The notes under the pieces were generated by a model that was not told where the DNA came from, ran no database searches, and was given only the letters and a program-made list of their open reading frames with translations. From NCBI GenBank assembly GCA_965222715.1, contig OZ244961.1, positions 140,609 through 204,608 of the forward strand: a stretch of 64,000 nt of DNA, read 5' to 3'. This document shows positions 6,976 to 63,453 of this stretch, one piece after another. This DNA is from Minisyncoccota bacterium. Its GTDB lineage: Bacteria > Patescibacteriota > Minisyncoccia > Phycocordibacterales > JABMNX01. Position numbers and translations under genes: made by a program. Each line of letters starts with the position of its first letter. Positions within the stretch are counted from its first letter, which is position 1.

Positions 6976-7004
6976 TTGACGTACTAGATGTATAGAAGTA
7001 TAAT
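6976..7004 (+). promoter_or_regulatory. sigma70-type promoter (TTGACG-17-TATAAT) preceding GC-rich unit
   Basis: TTGACG 6976-6981, TATAAT 6999-7004. Confidence 0.4.
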
Positions 7005-7011
7005 CCTCGTT

Positions 7012-7315
7012 GGTTTAGTTTGGTTTACATAGAGGCTTCAAGAAAGGGGAAGTGACAAATGGGTGCGACTGTTGAGGTTATTGTAAAGAGGCGTTTCGGA
7101 AGGGATGAGCGAAAGGTGGCTCAGAGACGGGCGGCTCGTCCGTGTGTACCGAGTTCGATCCGGAACGTCAGACCAGCAAGAATCGCAACCTCGGGGGTTG
7201 TCAGTGCGGCGGCCAGGATGGCAGGTGTCGCAAGAGTCCGCGGCATATGAAACATAAGCCGGACTGGATGCGCCAGTACTAGGGGGCACAATCACGAAAT
7301 ATCACAAAATACATG
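7012..7315 (+). ncRNA. GC-rich ~300-nt transcription unit of unknown nature (candidate structured ncRNA, or Arg-rich 63-aa small ORF 7059-7250)
   Basis: bounded by promoter 6976-7004 and terminator 7316-7350; GC far above genome background; weak resemblance to SRP-RNA helix-8 (GTCAGACCAGCAAGAATCGCAACC) not confirmable by eye. Confidence 0.25.
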
Positions 7316-7350
7316 GGGGCGGTTTGAGATAACTGCCCCTTTTGATTTGT
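7316..7350 (+). terminator. rho-independent terminator (GGGGCGG...CTGCCCC + T-run)
   Basis: GC stem followed by TTTTGATTTGTTTTTT. Confidence 0.6.
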
Positions 7351-7403
7351 TTTTTAAATTCTCATAACCAATTCTCTTAGTTCGGGATGGATTAGGATAT
7401 ATA

Positions 7404-7432
7404 TTGACTATTTAATCAAAATATTATATAAT
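7404..7432 (+). promoter_or_regulatory. sigma70-type promoter (TTGACT-17-TATAAT) for the GGDEF gene
   Basis: TTGACT 7404-7409, TATAAT 7427-7432; AGGAGG RBS 7467-7472 then ATG 7481. Confidence 0.5.
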
Positions 7433-7480
7433 TAAATTTAGATCTAGTCAGTATACTCATGCTACGAGGAGGTGTACATT

Positions 7481-8155
7481 ATGAGTGACAGTACCGCTAT
7501 TCCGCGTGTTGGAGATATCTCTGAGCGCGAGCTCGAGAACCTTCCGCACAAAACTCTGGTCGCGTTCGCACTGCGTGCGCAGTCGTTGGCAACGATCGAC
7601 GACATGACCCAGATTCTGAACCATCGCGCGTTCGAAGAAGAGGCCACTCGCCACTTCAACCGTATGAAGCGTAATGGTGATGAAGGGGTGATGCTTCTTC
7701 TGGACATCGACCTCTTCAAGAGGGTTAACGACACCTACGGCCACCTCGGCGGTAATGAGGTGATCAAAAAAGTTGCCAGCATCATGGAGGCATGTACTCG
7801 GCCCAGCGATCTCTGTGGACGCTATGGTGGGGAGGAGTTCATCATCTTCCTTCCCAATACCGGTAAGCAAGAAAGCAAGCTGGTCGCCGAGCGGATCCGC
7901 ACCATGGTCGAAGGGTCCACGGTGAAGTTCGAATCCCACGACATTTCATGCACGGTGAGTATCGGCCTCGCACTTCTTTCTGATGCGGAAGATCTCGAAG
8001 GCCTGATAGGTTCGGCCGACCGAGCGCTCTACAAGGCAAAAGGCGGAGGTCGGAATCGTGTCGTCACGGCTGATGCGAATCTCAACGAAAAGCGTCGCTT
8101 TACTGGAAGCAGCGATCGTCGTGGTCAAGATGTTCCGGATCGTCGGAAATCCTAA
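7481..8155 (+). CDS. diguanylate cyclase (GGDEF domain), GC-rich, likely horizontally acquired
   Basis: GGEEF active-site motif, RxxD I-site (RPSD) five residues upstream, conserved DxLT..NRR-like segments; codon GC well above neighbours; track start 7472 is a GTG inside the RBS, so ATG 7481 is preferred. Confidence 0.8.
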   Translation: MSDSTAIPRVGDISERELENLPHKTLVAFALRAQSLATIDDMTQILNHRAFEEEATRHFNRMKRNGDEGVMLLLDIDLFKRVNDTYGHLGGNEVIKKVASIMEACTRPSDLCGRYGGEEFIIFLPNTGKQESKLVAERIRTMVEGSTVKFESHDISCTVSIGLALLSDAEDLEGLIGSADRALYKAKGGGRNRVVTADANLNEKRRFTGSSDRRGQDVPDRRKS

Positions 8156-8178
8156 ACATTCATCTCGAATGAAAACTA

Positions 8179-8367: not shown

Positions 8368-8455
<88 letters not shown>

Positions 8456-40475: not shown

Positions 40476-40612
40476 AAAAATGTGTGAGAGGTGCTGTGCT
40501 ACTGAACAATGTCTCTAGAGCCTTTCTTCGTATCAGTAGGGTTAGCAGCACTTCTCGCTAACAAAAAACCCGCATCTACGGGGTAGCAGTACTATACTTT
40601 GCTGGTGCATAA

Positions 40613-40657
40613 AAGTCAAAAGTAAAACCGCCCCAAGCACTTCTGCGCTTGGGGCGG
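40613..40657 (-). terminator. GC-rich intrinsic terminator for the GC-rich secreted-protein gene
   Basis: minus-strand CCGCCCCAAGC gcagaagt GCTTGGGGCGG followed by TTTTACTTTT. Confidence 0.6.
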
Positions 40658-40710
40658 GGGTTGAACGGGAACGACGATTTGATCGTCAGAGAGACTTCGG
40701 CACCGGCCGA

Positions 40711-41229
40711 TCAGGATGCGATCGTCAGACCGCTCCAGCCGCCGGACAGCAGGGTCGTCTTCAGCAACAGGCCGGACGTACCGGAAGTGTCGATGAAGTC
40801 GTTGTTGGTGTCGAACGCCGCGACCTCCAGCGCGGAGGGCGGCATCTTGGCCAGGCCGGCGGTCGTGCCGACGTTCAGCTGATCGAAGTCCATGAAGGCG
40901 CTCACCTGGTCGAGATCGTGGATCACGACGTTCGGCGGGTTGCCGATGTCGGCGCCGTCGGAATACAGAAGCCACTGGGTCCGGTCGAAGTCGGACAGAT
41001 CGCCGATGTCGGCCAGCATGGTCTGCTGGCGCGCGGCCGGCGTCGTCGAGTCGTTGGTCGTGACCGAGCAGTCGAACGCCGCGACCTCCACCGCGGTGCC
41101 GTTCAGGCCGATGTCGACGTCGAGCGCATTGCAGTCGTTACTGGCGAGCGCCGCGTTCGGCGGTGCCATGGCGACGAAACCCAAGATGGCGGCTGCCATC
41201 AGCGGGGTCATGAAGAAACGTTTCCTCAT
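40711..41229 (-). CDS. secreted hypothetical protein with internal EVAAFD repeat, GC-rich (likely horizontally acquired)
   Basis: 172 aa from ATG 41229 (GGGAG RBS); signal peptide MRKRFFMTPLMAAAILGFVAMAPPNAALA; about 63% GC versus about 39% background. Confidence 0.55.
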   Translation of the reverse strand: MRKRFFMTPLMAAAILGFVAMAPPNAALASNDCNALDVDIGLNGTAVEVAAFDCSVTTNDSTTPAARQQTMLADIGDLSDFDRTQWLLYSDGADIGNPPNVVIHDLDQVSAFMDFDQLNVGTTAGLAKMPPSALEVAAFDTNNDFIDTSGTSGLLLKTTLLSGGWSGLTIAS

Positions 41230-41377
41230 TCGCTTTTCTCCCATTCGAGTGTGAAGAACAGTGCCTCACTGTTGAGACCTGCCCAGTGTATCATATAAAG
41301 AAATATTGTCAAGTCCTCACATATGTGGTGTGGAAAACAACTTTATTACTTAAGAATGTGTGTAAAATGAAAGAAAT

Positions 41378-60026: not shown

Positions 60027-60563
60027 ATGTCAGAAGTAACAACAGCTGAAGGGAAACAAGTACCAAGCGTAACTTTCAAAATGCGTGTACAGAACGAATC
60101 TGGAGAGTACGACTGGAAAGATGTTTCAAGCGATGAAATCTTTAAGAGTAAAAAAGTAGTCCTCTTTGCACTTCCTGGAGCATTTACTCCAACTTGTTCA
60201 TCAACTCACTTGCCAGGATATGAAGCAGCATATGATGAGCTCAAAGGTCTTGGAGTGGACGAGGTGTATTGTCTCTCAGTAAATGATGCATTTGTGATGA
60301 ATGCATGGGGGAAGGATCAGGGAGTGAAAAATGTAAAACTCATTCCTGATGGAAGTGGAGAATTTACTCGTGGTATTGGTATGATGGTCAAGAAAGACAA
60401 TCTTGGTTTTGGAGATCGAAGTTGGCGTTATAGCTTCTACGCAGAAGACGGCGAAATTAAGAAGATGTTCGTTGAGCCAGGTTTCGAAGATAACTGTCCT
60501 ACTGATCCATTTGAGGTCTCAGATGCAGAGACTATGAAAAATTACCTTAAAGAACAAGCATAA
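60027..60563 (+). CDS. peroxiredoxin (Prx5-like, AhpC/TSA superfamily)
   Basis: 178 aa, peroxidatic Cys motif PGAFTPTCS. Confidence 0.8.
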   Translation: MSEVTTAEGKQVPSVTFKMRVQNESGEYDWKDVSSDEIFKSKKVVLFALPGAFTPTCSSTHLPGYEAAYDELKGLGVDEVYCLSVNDAFVMNAWGKDQGVKNVKLIPDGSGEFTRGIGMMVKKDNLGFGDRSWRYSFYAEDGEIKKMFVEPGFEDNCPTDPFEVSDAETMKNYLKEQA

Positions 60564-60592
60564 CAATAGTTTGCTAGAAAAAAAATAAAAAT

Positions 60593-60618
60593 AAACGCCA
60601 AGAGTACTCTTGGCGTTT
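60593..60618 (+). terminator. conserved palindromic terminator repeat copy (AAACGCCAAGAGTACTCTTGGCGTTT)
   Basis: after peroxiredoxin stop, followed by ATTTTTG. Confidence 0.6.
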
Positions 60619-60627
60619 ATTTTTGAG

Positions 60628-60672
60628 TATAAAAAGAAAACGGCGACTCTCTATTGCTAGAAGGTCGCCGTT
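60628..60672 (-). terminator. intrinsic terminator for pyrFE (AACGGCGAC ... GTCGCCGTT + T-run on the minus strand)
   Basis: 9-bp GC stem, 16-nt loop, T-run. Confidence 0.5.
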
Positions 60673-60693
60673 TGTGTGTCAGAAGTATGTATT

Positions 60694-61980
60694 TCAACAC
60701 TTCAAACCAAGTTCCTCGACAACGATACGCCGCACTTCTTGCGCAGGATCATCGGCGTTGATGATTTGTCTGCCAGAGACGATTGCGTTTGCGCCAGCTT
60801 CCATTGCTTCAGTTGGGGCCATCACACGTTTTTGGTCGTTCGTTTCAGCTTCGGGGGAACGAACTCCTGGGGTAACTCCAAAGAGATCAGGATATTTCCC
60901 CTTAACTTTCCCAATCTCTTTGGGCGAACAGACGATACTGCCGACATTGACTGCGTCGACAAGCTCTACGAGACGAAGAACTTGCGTCATCGACTTGCGG
61001 CCAAAAATTTCACCACAGTCATCGTCGCTGAGGGATGTGAGCACCGTTACGGCAAGAGTTTTGATACCGTGCGGGTGGAGCATATCCACTGCCTTTTGCA
61101 TCATCGCTCGACCGCCCGATGCATGGATCGTTAGCGCCCATGGATAGAATTTGGGATCCATGTCGATGATATGTTGGCAGTAGTTCCCGATCGTGTTGGG
61201 TATGTCATGCAGCTTCGGGTCGAGCATGACAGGACCGTACACGGCCAAGTCTTCAGCGATGGCAAAGCCCTCTTTGAGGAGCAGGTCGTTGACCTTGAGG
61301 CCACAACCTGTTCCTTGGAGTGAGGAAGCCAGCTGGAGCGCTGTTTGACGATTCATTCCATCAAGCGCCACAATGACTTTTGGATCTTCGTGGCCAATTG
61401 GAACGAAGATCTCTTTCCGAACGTCGTGCAGCGTTGCACCAGCCCAGACGTCCATATCTACGCCGTGTTCTTGGAACATTTGTTGCCACCCCTGCTCGCG
61501 ATCAACAAGGACCACAAGTATTGGTGTTGCACCAGCGGCGCGGATTGCATGATAAGCATCCAGTTTGGATGCCCCGTCGGTAATCACGTCGTCGAGGATG
61601 GCGACGCGTTCTCCGGCAAAGATCTCACCGATCAACTTAGCATTCCCGACTCGGCCGCTCTTCTCAGTTTCTCGGATAGTGGCATACGGAATACCGGTCA
61701 TGTACGAAACAACACCGGCGATACCACTTACCGAAGAAGGAACCTCAACAAATCGATCGACGTCGAGTCGTCGAAGAGCGTTGGCGTAAATGCGTGCCAA
61801 CGGTCCAGTTGATTCCGGGGCCGAGCGATGGTCACGTATGTTGATGTAGGTGTCGGTCGTGCCACCTTTTTTGAGTGGCAGACCTCTTGAAGGGTCGTAT
61901 TTCAACAACCCAGGATGAGATCGGATGAGCTGAATTGCGGCCCGTTGTTCAGGTCGCGTGAGAAATGTCACATGCTCCAC
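60694..61980 (-). CDS. bifunctional orotate phosphoribosyltransferase / orotidine-5'-phosphate decarboxylase (PyrE-PyrF fusion), GC-rich
   Basis: 428 aa: N-terminal PRTase (VAILDDVITDGAS), C-terminal OMP decarboxylase (VIVALDG...LKVND); GC about 53% versus about 39% background. Confidence 0.75.
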   Translation of the reverse strand: MEHVTFLTRPEQRAAIQLIRSHPGLLKYDPSRGLPLKKGGTTDTYINIRDHRSAPESTGPLARIYANALRRLDVDRFVEVPSSVSGIAGVVSYMTGIPYATIRETEKSGRVGNAKLIGEIFAGERVAILDDVITDGASKLDAYHAIRAAGATPILVVLVDREQGWQQMFQEHGVDMDVWAGATLHDVRKEIFVPIGHEDPKVIVALDGMNRQTALQLASSLQGTGCGLKVNDLLLKEGFAIAEDLAVYGPVMLDPKLHDIPNTIGNYCQHIIDMDPKFYPWALTIHASGGRAMMQKAVDMLHPHGIKTLAVTVLTSLSDDDCGEIFGRKSMTQVLRLVELVDAVNVGSIVCSPKEIGKVKGKYPDLFGVTPGVRSPEAETNDQKRVMAPTEAMEAGANAIVSGRQIINADDPAQEVRRIVVEELGLKC

Positions 61981-62104
61981 TTTACGTCTCCTTTGTTGGT
62001 TTTGTGGAAGGACTCTATATCCACAGAAACCCTACTTGAATAGGGTATAAAAATCAAGCTATACAACTTGCAAGACACGGTTTTGATTTTCCTTCACAGA
62101 GTGC

Positions 62105-62154
62105 TGGAGGGGAGACTCGAACTCCGACAAACAGTACTTTAAGTACTGTTTGTC
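62105..62154 (-). pseudogene. orphan tRNA 3' fragment (T-arm plus acceptor 3' strand GGAGTTCGAGTCTCCCCTCCAGCA) preceded by a perfect 13-bp hairpin
   Basis: minus-strand GACAAACAGTACTttaAGTACTGTTTGTC then a T-arm-like sequence; no matching 5' half found. Confidence 0.4.
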
Positions 62155-62203
62155 TTCTAATTGAAACTGCAATTTTGAGACCATCAGTAGTCTTCTGCAC
62201 AAA

Positions 62204-62288
62204 TGGTGCCGCGGGAGAGAATCGAACTCTCACCTCTTGCGAGACACGATTTTGAGTCGTGCGCGTCTACCAATTCCGCCACCGCGGC
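62204..62288 (-). tRNA. tRNA-Leu (anticodon CAA), CCA encoded
   Basis: cloverleaf by eye, long variable arm; anticodon loop CTCAAAA; 3' ...GCGGCACCA. Confidence 0.85.
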
Positions 62289-62397: not shown

Positions 62398-63453
62398 ATG
62401 ATACAATACACGGTAATTATGGAAGCAGAACACTTTTACAACGATTCGATTTTTTGGGTTGAGCTTGAAAAGATTCACCCGAACCCATTTCAGCCACGAA
62501 AAGAGTTTAATGAAGCTAAGCTAAGTGAGCTTGCTGATTCAATTCGTCAGTACGGTGTACTTCAACCACTCGTTGTTACTCGTCGTGAAAAAGAAAAAGA
62601 AGATGGAGGTCTTGCTGTTGAGTATGAACTCATTGCTGGTGAGCGACGGCTACGCGCCTCACGGTTAGCTGGACTTTCACAGATTCCTGTTATTATCCGC
62701 ACCAGCGACGAGACAGACAAGATGAAGCTCGAACTTGCGATCATTGAGAACTTACAACGTGAAGACCTTAATCCAATCGATCGAGCAAAGGCATTCAAAC
62801 GTCTCGTTGATGAATTTGGGTTAAAGCATGGAGAAGTAGGGAAGAAAGTAGGAAAGAGCCGCGAATACGTTTCAAATACACTGCGACTCTTACTCATGCC
62901 AGAAGAAATACAACAAGCACTTTCTGACGGAAGCATCTCTGAAGGACATGCCCGACCAATATTGATGCTTACGGGGAAAGACGATGAGCAGAAAACACTC
63001 TTTAAGGAAATAATGTACAAGAAGCTTACCGTACGGGAAGCGGAAGAGATTGCACGTCGCATTGCAACAGATCGAGTTCGCAAGAAAGAAAATGCACTTA
63101 GCCCTGAATTAATCGCACTTGAAGAAGAGTTAACGCAGAAACTTGGTACACGAGTACAGATTGAAGAGCGTGAAGGTGGTGGGCGAGTGCACATTGATTA
63201 TTTTTCAGTTGATGATTTGCGCAATATTCTAGAGAAGATAGAGGGTGAGCAGAACAAAGGCTTTTTAGAACGTCTAACCTCTTTTACGCAAGGAACGCAG
63301 CAAACTACTCAAACAGAAGTACGTGAGAAAACAGATATTACTCATGATGGTGCTGAAGAACAAAAAACCCCAATTGATGATAGATCTGAAAAAGAGAAAG
63401 AAAAAGAAGAAAACGACGAAGATCTCTACTCAGTTAAAAACTTCTCTATTTAG
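62398..63453 (+). CDS. parB: chromosome partitioning protein ParB/Spo0J with acidic C-terminal extension
   Basis: 351 aa, ParB box GERRLRA, HTH region, C-terminal Glu/Lys-rich tail. Confidence 0.8.
   Translation: MIQYTVIMEAEHFYNDSIFWVELEKIHPNPFQPRKEFNEAKLSELADSIRQYGVLQPLVVTRREKEKEDGGLAVEYELIAGERRLRASRLAGLSQIPVIIRTSDETDKMKLELAIIENLQREDLNPIDRAKAFKRLVDEFGLKHGEVGKKVGKSREYVSNTLRLLLMPEEIQQALSDGSISEGHARPILMLTGKDDEQKTLFKEIMYKKLTVREAEEIARRIATDRVRKKENALSPELIALEEELTQKLGTRVQIEEREGGGRVHIDYFSVDDLRNILEKIEGEQNKGFLERLTSFTQGTQQTTQTEVREKTDITHDGAEEQKTPIDDRSEKEKEKEENDEDLYSVKNFSI

Follow-up and report, generated by a model that had tools for sequence, protein, structure and literature searches.

How did a bacterium of the Patescibacteria, a group commonly portrayed as without de novo nucleotide synthesis, come to carry an intact and unusually guanine-plus-cytosine (GC)-rich gene predicted to convert orotate to uridine monophosphate (UMP), and did this gene arrive from outside the group? 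The question is raised by pyrEF, which lies close to one end of a 64,000-nucleotide stretch of a Minisyncoccota genome (assembly GCA_965222715.1, contig OZ244961.1, positions 140,609 to 204,608; hereafter the window, W) and was described in an initial annotation as a PyrE-PyrF fusion that was likely acquired laterally. Our analysis points, with moderate confidence, to a bifunctional UMP synthase cassette that belongs to a patescibacterial gene family and is exchanged among related Patescibacteria at a fixed chromosomal slot.

The pyrEF gene and its immediate setting

The pyrEF gene is an intact two-domain enzyme gene with proper translation and termination signals (Table 1). The open reading frame (ORF), the domain order and the intact catalytic motifs in both halves confirm the earlier description of a 428-residue protein in which a PyrE domain precedes a PyrF domain; the span first assigned to it, 60628-61990, extends beyond the ORF on both sides, into the terminator hairpin at the 3' end and the leader at the 5' end. 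The gene is convergent with the peroxiredoxin gene prx, and one palindromic terminator serves both. The second hairpin listed in Table 1 is also found 3' of prx in two relatives, L081 and the empty-slot L084 (L and P labels denote loci and proteins of relatives), and is thus a landmark of the side of the slot next to prx, which is conserved.

Table 1. Features of the pyrEF slot and its borders, in window coordinates
Feature	Coordinates	Strand	Remarks
prx, peroxiredoxin (Redoxin/AhpC-TSA)	60027..60563	plus	Conserved left slot border
Perfect 19-bp palindrome with A- and T-run flanks	60587..60624		Bidirectional intrinsic terminator of prx (plus) and pyrEF (minus)
Second hairpin	60638..60673		AACGGCGAC...GTCGCCGTT
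pyrEF ORF	60694..61980	minus	428 residues, GTG start, TGA/TAA-terminated; putative bifunctional OPRTase-like / OMP decarboxylase
C-terminal domain, residues 199-428	60697..61386	minus	OMP decarboxylase TIM barrel; D207, K229, D254-x-K256-x-x-D259, G403-R404
N-terminal domain, residues 1-195	61396..61980	minus	Putative type I phosphoribosyltransferase, OPRTase-like; motifs LKKGGTTDTY, R103..K107..R110, VAILDDVITDGASK, VDREQGW
Shine-Dalgarno AAGGAG	61988..61993	minus	7 nt 5' of the pyrEF GTG; read directly from the sequence
Decayed tandem tRNA-Leu(CAA) copy	62101..62200	minus	T-arm-like GTGCTGGAGGGGAGACTCGAACTC, anticodon-arm-like GATTTTGAG; directly downstream of the intact tRNA
tRNA-Leu(CAA)	62204..62288	minus	Conserved right slot border
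parB	62398..63453	plus	Beyond tRNA-Leu(CAA)
OPRTase, orotate phosphoribosyltransferase; OMP, orotidine 5'-monophosphate.

A chromosomal slot with alternative contents

The slot is part of a conserved block that runs clpB, a pilin gene, tRNA-Trp, miaA (minus), prx (plus), the slot itself, tRNA-Leu(CAA) (minus), parB (plus), relA/spoT, topA, dprA and serS. By the best matches of its ParB (73-76% identity), the host belongs with the Kaiserbacteria-like Paceibacteria. In genomes with a ClpB 80-88% identical to that of the window, the contents of the slot vary widely. A fused gene is present in one of two lineages, lineage A in W and L080 and lineage B in L081/L082/L026 and L109, which are only 46-50% identical to each other. 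Other genomes carry at the same position a short TIGR01740-type PyrF alone (L105), a long TIGR02127-type PyrF (PyrF_sub2) alone (L106), a TIGR02127-type PyrF with a PyrE-like gene in pyrF-pyrE order (L107), or a PyrE-like ORF with an unknown membrane ORF and a small GIY-YIG ORF (L108), and in still others the slot is empty, consisting of a 170-290 bp spacer (L083, L084/85 and L086/87). All but one of the occupied states consist only of genes for the conversion of orotate to UMP, and in the window the extra segment at the slot is a single ORF with short spacers, with prx, miaA, parB and relA/spoT as its neighbors. The fused gene is found at the same place in more distant relatives (ClpB ~70%; L005, L034, L036 and L041), and another distant relative, L070, has separate pyrF and pyrE genes there. 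A ParB-based metagenome scan for further close relatives returned only five distant loci.

Such turnover shows that the capacity to make UMP from orotate is accessory and rapidly changing within a family-level clade, and this capacity is a candidate marker of the host dependence of individual lineages. An empty-slot locus (L086) and a lineage B locus (L109), with ClpB 88% identical, co-occur in a single metagenome (ENA sample ERZ24794644), which would be a natural place to study slot polymorphism.

We found little sign of mobile elements at this position. The tRNA-island or integrative-element model was rejected, as there was no integrase or recombinase and no att-type direct repeat around pyrEF. 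Likewise, no direct repeat of the tRNA 3' end was found on the prx side; the tRNA-like remnant lies between the tRNA and pyrEF. This decayed copy of tRNA-Leu, which includes a perfect 14-bp hairpin (62126-62154), is also present in L086 and in part in the L083 and L084 spacers, and is thus kept whether the slot is occupied or empty. Its fragment at 62101-62124 had been considered as an insertion scar; it is not a recognisable tRNA, and the decayed copy as a whole is not a scar of pyrEF insertion because it occurs in the empty slot of L086. In L108, from a Kaiserbacteria CG10 genome, the 78-residue GIY-YIG nuclease ORF (L108:5642-5878) directly adjoins tRNA-Leu(CAA), and is the sole mobile-element-like gene in any version of the slot that we saw. 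Adjacency to a tRNA gene is not a family-wide feature of the fused gene, and was seen only in the Kaiserbacteria-like clade and in a few scattered cases.

Allele and host histories

The similarity of PyrEF proteins does not track the similarity of their hosts. Examples are L080 and L109, with miaA 80% and prx 87% identical and PyrEF only 50%; L034 and L041, with ClpB 86%, ParB 80% and PyrEF 54%; and W and L081, with ClpB 82%, ParB 79% and PyrEF 46%. Elsewhere the values lie closer together (L081 and L109, miaA 73% and PyrEF 71%; L034 and L036, ClpB 68% and PyrEF 61%), and across 28 pairs the identities of miaA and PyrEF were not significantly correlated (Spearman rho 0.23, p 0.25). A neighbor-joining (NJ) tree, calculated for 161 sequences and bootstrapped 200 times, joined W to L080/P0002 (bootstrap 100%) and L081 to L005, P0005, P0015 and P0041 (95%). 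Nucleotide identity profiles are mosaic: between L080 and L081 the flanking genes are 65-84% identical, a 410-bp non-coding spacer 51-61% and pyrEF 42-57%, while between W and L080 the values are about 60% in pyrEF and 18-29% in the spacer. The breakpoints are therefore close to the ends of the ORF. Lateral turnover at the slot is real, and the part of the initial annotation that proposed lateral acquisition stands to this extent, since presence/absence and allele replacement occur among relatives; a donor outside the Patescibacteria is not supported.

These observations would be consistent with the following sequence of events. In the Kaiserbacteria-like clade, the fixed slot between prx/miaA and tRNA-Leu(CAA)/parB may act as a site for exchangeable cassettes, which would be lost and then re-acquired from other Patescibacteria. 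The likely route would be that DNA is taken up and then recombines homologously across the flanks, which are conserved, as suggested by the position of the breakpoints at the ORF ends together with the lack of an integrase or att repeat.

The main alternative, possible though unlikely in our judgement, is purely vertical descent in the lineage of the window: pyrEF would be native to the slot and would have occupied it ancestrally, the high GC content would be a family trait only, and the low identity to other alleles would result from fast evolution, with replacements and losses confined to other genomes. Conservation of the slot and of gene orientation across an order-level clade, the lack of integrase genes and att repeats, and a GC content at third codon positions (GC3) that falls inside the scatter of the family regression described below all fit this view, as does the NJ tree, which sets W and L080 loosely beside a Kaiserbacteria-related allele clade. 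The distribution of alleles argues otherwise, however. In the closest host relatives of L080 (L109, with miaA 80% identical, and L081, L084, L086 and L106), the slot has lineage B, another kind of PyrF or no gene at all, and at least one transfer must therefore have involved the W-like allele lineage; moreover, the nearest host relative of W, L083, has an empty slot, and the synonymous GC excess of W (+0.19) is twice the family median.

Exchange among Patescibacteria remains the reading that we favor, and several points weigh against it. The identities of miaA (60%) and PyrEF (57%) between W and L080 are close, as descent with the host would predict, and the deep position of the W/L080 lineage in the tree has bootstrap values of 25% or less, so that the W allele could have been inherited vertically with only other genomes replaced. 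No pyrEF relic was demonstrable in the empty slots: L084 gave weak collinear tblastn matches, with a family hidden Markov model (HMM) score that was also reached by 16 of 300 shuffled sequences, and the direction of change (loss or gain) is consequently read from the distribution only. Recombination through the flanks is deduced from these patterns rather than observed. Finally, the contigs are metagenome assemblies, and there is a residual chance that some are chimeras joined at the tRNA or at prx, both of which are conserved, although the recurrence of three arrangements in independent assemblies (L081/L082/L026, L084/L085 and L086/L087) counts against such joins.

Domain composition and predicted activity

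The PyrF half of the protein is a member of its family by score cut-off, predicted fold and catalytic residues. Residues 200-419 match PF00215 (OMPdecase) with an E value of 2e-37 and 129.5 bits, where the cut-off is 27, and the domain scored 126.8 bits against a cut-off of 92.3 for TIGR01740 (pyrF). Motif conservation was read from 30 aligned members of the family that are 45-57% identical (mean column identity 63%), among which D207, K229, D254, K256, D259, G403 and R404 are invariant in 30/30 sequences, including the window protein; we take D-x-K-x-x-D with K229 and D207 to be the catalytic network of OMP decarboxylase (OMPDC), and G403-R404 to be the phosphate gripper. An AlphaFold model built from the same alignment (pLDDT 88.4, pTM 0.84) placed the C-domain with bacterial OMPDC structures 3ldv, 1dbt, 8cso and 1eix in Foldseek (E 4e-15 to 4e-14), with target TM values of 0.84-0.90 and root-mean-square deviations of 2.0-2.7 A. 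The domain is 29-34% identical to the OMPDC enzymes of V. cholerae, B. subtilis and E. coli, and the short bacterial PyrF type matches it best.

The PyrE half belongs to a divergent subfamily of OPRTase-like sequences and keeps the catalytic motifs, as judged from its sequence. It falls under the curated cut-offs of PF00156 (18.6 against 26.3) and TIGR00336 (pyrE; 47.1 against 106.8), and scores far under the cut-off of the remaining PyrE equivalog models; it was therefore filed as OPRTase-like and divergent, rather than as a member of TIGR00336. Among all sequences of the PDB, every match with E<0.02 (the 14 best distinct sequences) is an OPRTase or UMP synthase, led by the OPRT domains of Leishmania UMP synthase (3qw4, 6e-15) and the human enzyme (2wns, 3e-10). 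The N-terminal LKxGGxTDxY, loop residues R103, K107 and R110, residues D130, D131, T134 and G136 of the phosphoribosyl pyrophosphate (PRPP) loop VAILDDVITDGASK (D130-D131-V-x-T134-x-G136), and R161, the VDRQ-type arginine in VDR(E/Q)QGW, are each invariant in 30/30 family members. The PRPP loop and the flexible-loop residues R103/K107/R110 align with their counterparts in the human and Leishmania OPRT domains, and R103/K107, D130-D131 and R161 presumably correspond to R99/K103, D124-D125 and R156 of E. coli OPRTase. An exhaustive search with the N-domain recovered the same PyrE subfamily as stand-alone proteins of 195-215 residues (39-50% identity), and its more distant relatives include reverse-order fusions.

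Together, the conserved catalytic residues and the predicted fold suggest a bifunctional OPRTase-OMPDC, or UMP synthase, in which the N-domain would convert orotate and PRPP to OMP and the C-domain OMP to UMP. It is improbable that the N-domain is instead a regulatory or nucleotide-binding phosphoribosyltransferase-fold module, as in PyrR or other "OPRTase-like" proteins, which would reduce the product to an OMP decarboxylase with an appendage. Such a role might be read from the scores of the domain, which are below cut-off for PF00156 and for all the PyrE models, from the family name in databases, which is only "orotidine-5'-phosphate decarboxylase", and from the slot variants with PyrF alone (L105 and L106). 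The best matches among PDB sequences, however, are to OPRTase and UMP synthase and not to PyrR, uracil phosphoribosyltransferase or adenine phosphoribosyltransferase (APRT), with APRT-type matches first appearing at E ~0.025 and weakening onward, and the invariance of the PRPP loop (DDVITDG), R103/K107 and R161 in 30 sequences that are only 45-57% identical is as expected for catalysis.

Distribution of the fused family

Full-length relatives of pyrEF number more than 100 proteins of ~430-450 residues, with 93-100% coverage and 44-57% identity, none of them exceeding 57% to the window protein. Among the best 120 matches, 120/120 are fused proteins of this size, and those with reliably named sources are from Patescibacteria; where a source is named, it is Paceibacterota, Kaiserbacteria, Moranbacteria, Minisyncoccia or "Patescibacteria group". 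Scanning GTDB with a single genome for each species yielded 358 relatives, with fused forms in Buchanan-, Morani-, Staskawicz-, Jorgensen-, Wolfe-, Falkow-, Taylor-, Azam- and Doudnabacteria, among others. This is a large family of PyrE-to-PyrF fusions, and in the data sampled this domain order occurs only in Patescibacteria.

Six contigs with the fused gene (L011, L018, L019, L023, L043 and L047), one of them 678 kb long, come from metagenome-assembled genome (MAG) records labelled Planctomycetota, Chitinivibrionales, Gammaproteobacteria or Nanoarchaeota. These labels are probably the result of mis-binning or mislabelling, and we treated them as unreliable because the gene content and composition of the contigs look patescibacterial. 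NC10/Methylomirabilota, suggested by coverage figures as a second home of the fusion, was rejected: in the NC10 loci, as in L070 and L098, pyrF precedes pyrE, mostly in separate frames. Carriage by phages or plasmids was also rejected, as no fused form was present on the viral or plasmid records searched; IMG/VR contained only PyrF-alone matches and the reverse-order L098, and INPHARED and PLSDB contained no match over at least 80% of the pyrEF query.

Most family members share a conserved inter-domain linker, G-x-M-x-R-C-D-P (alignment columns about 215-225), in which the Arg-Cys pair is nearly invariant. The window protein (around residues 192-199) and its sister L080/P0002 are without this linker, owing to a deletion of 8-9 residues.

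GC content and the origin of the gene

The compositional anomaly that had drawn attention to pyrEF is pronounced. Its GC content is 0.528 (first, second and third codon positions.64,.41 and 0.531), compared with a window mean of 0.424 and, for the 45 remaining ORFs that are 150 residues or longer, a GC of 0.418 (standard deviation 0.023) and a GC3 of 0.327 (0.038). The gene thus has z values of 4.8 for GC and 5.3 for GC3 and ranks 3/48, after two other outliers, and the GC step is sharp and coincides with the ends of the ORF. The value of about 53% given initially was accurate (52.8%), whereas the surrounding DNA has a GC content of 42% and not ~39%.

This anomaly recurs throughout the family. 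The fused gene exceeded its flanking ORFs in GC in 48/48 family loci (median +0.06, maximum +0.18), and was the most GC-rich ORF in 18 of the 34 loci with at least eight ORFs, against 2.7 expected. By codon position, the median excess was +0.08 at the first (48/48), +0.035 at the second (37/48) and +0.08 at the third (44/48; sign test p 1.5e-9). Gene GC3 followed that of the host with a roughly constant offset (gene GC3 =.157 +.869 x host GC3, R2.57), and the GC3 of the nearest allele had only a weak extra effect (b 0.22, p 0.02). For W, this regression predicts a GC3 of 0.457 against 0.531 observed. Rewriting the W protein in the codon usage of the window gave an expected GC of.457, against.418 for background genes, and ~35% of the excess is therefore due to amino-acid composition and 65% is synonymous. 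The synonymous excess of W, about twice the family median, is nearly matched by that of L080 (+0.16), a sister allele that is 43% diverged. Translational selection was rejected as the cause of high GC3 in this genome, as cytosine at third codon positions (C3) is.11-.16 in the highly expressed genes for GroEL/ES, S1, IF-2, ClpB and GyrA and.32 in pyrEF.

GC-richness is thus mostly a trait of the gene family, combining amino-acid composition with a roughly constant synonymous GC3 offset, and it is poor evidence of recent arrival. Because the excess is a property of the family, GC deviation cannot date or source pyrEF; used alone, it would have done both wrongly, which is a methodological lesson of this locus. 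Candidate causes of the offset are recombination-associated biased gene conversion and persistent gene flow from GC-richer lineages.

We give almost no credence to a recent acquisition from a GC-richer donor outside the Candidate Phyla Radiation (CPR)/Patescibacteria, with the high GC content as an un-ameliorated donor signature, in line with the lateral acquisition proposed in the initial annotation: the strong z values, a GC3 excess spread across 16/18 amino-acid families and both domains, two further GC-rich single genes in the window and the empty slots of some relatives would agree with such an event, but the best homologs, all of them fused proteins and patescibacterial where reliably named, place the gene within the host's own group at phylum level, an outcome that the initial annotation had listed as refuting its view, no non-patescibacterial source with this architecture was found and no homolog is more than 57% identical, the parB-tRNALeu-pyrEF-prx-miaA arrangement is common to relatives down to ClpB ~70%, the L080 allele is 43% diverged yet equally GC-rich, which misfits a recent event, and the excess is family-wide and tracks host GC3. 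Import from outside the Patescibacteria is not supported.

A more ambitious version of exchange among Patescibacteria is conceivable, and we consider it doubtful enough to be offered as speculation. The slot would be a dedicated exchange site for non-orthologous orotate-to-UMP cassettes (two fused lineages, PyrF of types 1 and 2, and PyrE-like genes). Under fluctuating or diversifying selection, these would be lost time and again and replaced through transformation and recombination guided by the flanks, and the synonymous GC excess seen across the family would be a footprint left by this recurrent recombination (GC-biased gene conversion), not of foreign origin. If so, candidate pressures on the slot would be an orotate supply that depends on the host, or antimetabolites or phages acting on the orotate-to-UMP step.

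Pyrimidine metabolism and role in the cell

The rest of the window offers little pyrimidine context. In agreement with the first description of the locus, Pfam annotation of essentially all ORFs in the 64-kb window, part of a contig of ~617 kb, found none of pyrB, pyrC, pyrD and carAB, and apart from pyrEF the genes related to nucleotides are limited to those for a class II ribonucleotide reductase and two NUDIX hydrolases. Across 52 family loci, no conserved operon partner or transporter was found next to the fused gene, the commonest neighbor family being present in five loci. In two relatives, a gene of the DHO_dh family (dihydroorotate dehydrogenase-like, PF01180, 45.6 bits) lies directly upstream of the fused gene (L004:8396-9337 and L002:2903-3835); judging from these neighbors, some lineages may run a three-step route from dihydroorotate to UMP.

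In the cell, pyrEF would turn orotate into UMP, whether in salvage or as the last part of a de novo route with its other genes elsewhere. A published survey (PMC11608272) reported that CPR MAGs typically have the part of the pathway from UMP to UTP/CTP but lack its de novo portion, which is compatible with orotate salvage. With a fused OPRTase-OMPDC so widespread, many patescibacterial cells could make UMP from orotate, and pathway surveys that seek a separate pyrE may miss this capacity, given that the database label is only that of an OMP decarboxylase.

Other features of the window

Two further GC-rich segments were identified. The most extreme GC outlier of the window is an ORF on the minus strand at 40711..41244, within 40600-41250 (GC 0.64, GC3 0.89), encoding 177 residues with a signal-peptide-like N-terminus. 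It has no Pfam match, and Rfam has none at this position; a homology search, run as a comparison case for recent horizontal gene transfer (HGT), found no homolog other than itself among 5.8 billion proteins. The segment could be a foreign gene of very recent arrival, an ORFan or an insert of GC-rich, non-coding DNA. The other segment, 7000-8160, includes a stand-alone GGDEF diguanylate cyclase ORF on the plus strand (7472..8155; PF00990, E 5e-44) with a GC of 0.54 and a GC3 of 0.61 in a background GC3 of 0.33, and has a GC-rich stretch nearby (7038..7295) and an adjoining tRNA-Ser (8368..8455).

The window also encodes three small T4SS_pilin proteins (PF18895; 47419-48371 and 57578-58411), one of them in the conserved block just upstream of miaA, and dprA belongs to the same conserved neighborhood in relatives. 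The T4SS_pilin proteins and dprA fit a DNA-uptake lifestyle.

Comparison with known systems

Our literature search found no paper describing a patescibacterial PyrE-PyrF fusion, and the closest counterpart by architecture is the UMP synthase (UMPS) of animals and plants, which, like pyrEF, has an N-terminal OPRT domain and a C-terminal OMPDC domain on one chain. The human OPRT domain is also the second-best solved match to the N-domain, whereas the C-domain of the window protein best matches the short bacterial type of PyrF. At 428 residues, the pyrEF product is ~50 residues shorter than human UMPS. The patescibacterial fusion is most likely independent of the eukaryotic one. Leishmania UMP synthase, which provides the best solved match to the N-domain, joins the same pair of activities in the opposite order, as does the cyanobacterial-type bifunctional PyrF/PyrE (NF004034), for which the window protein scored 36.7 bits against a cut-off of 656. 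Relative to the stand-alone enzymes, the PyrF half exceeds the TIGR01740 cut-off and has the same fold and catalytic residues, and the PyrE half shares the motifs of TIGR00336 proteins but is too divergent for the curated model; the difference from both is that in pyrEF the two halves are joined by a short linker.

At the level of the chromosome, in-situ xenologous or non-orthologous gene displacement and core-flanked HGT hotspots are general concepts to which the slot can be compared. As in such hotspots, a single position between core genes and a tRNA holds alternative genes of the same function as well as empty states; in contrast to them, the slot is functionally themed and, apart from the GIY-YIG ORF of L108, is without integrases, att repeats or mobile-element genes. 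What this locus adds to the known UMP-synthase-type fusions and to in-situ displacement is modestly interesting: a variable slot with a functional theme, and a GC3 offset that extends across a gene family.

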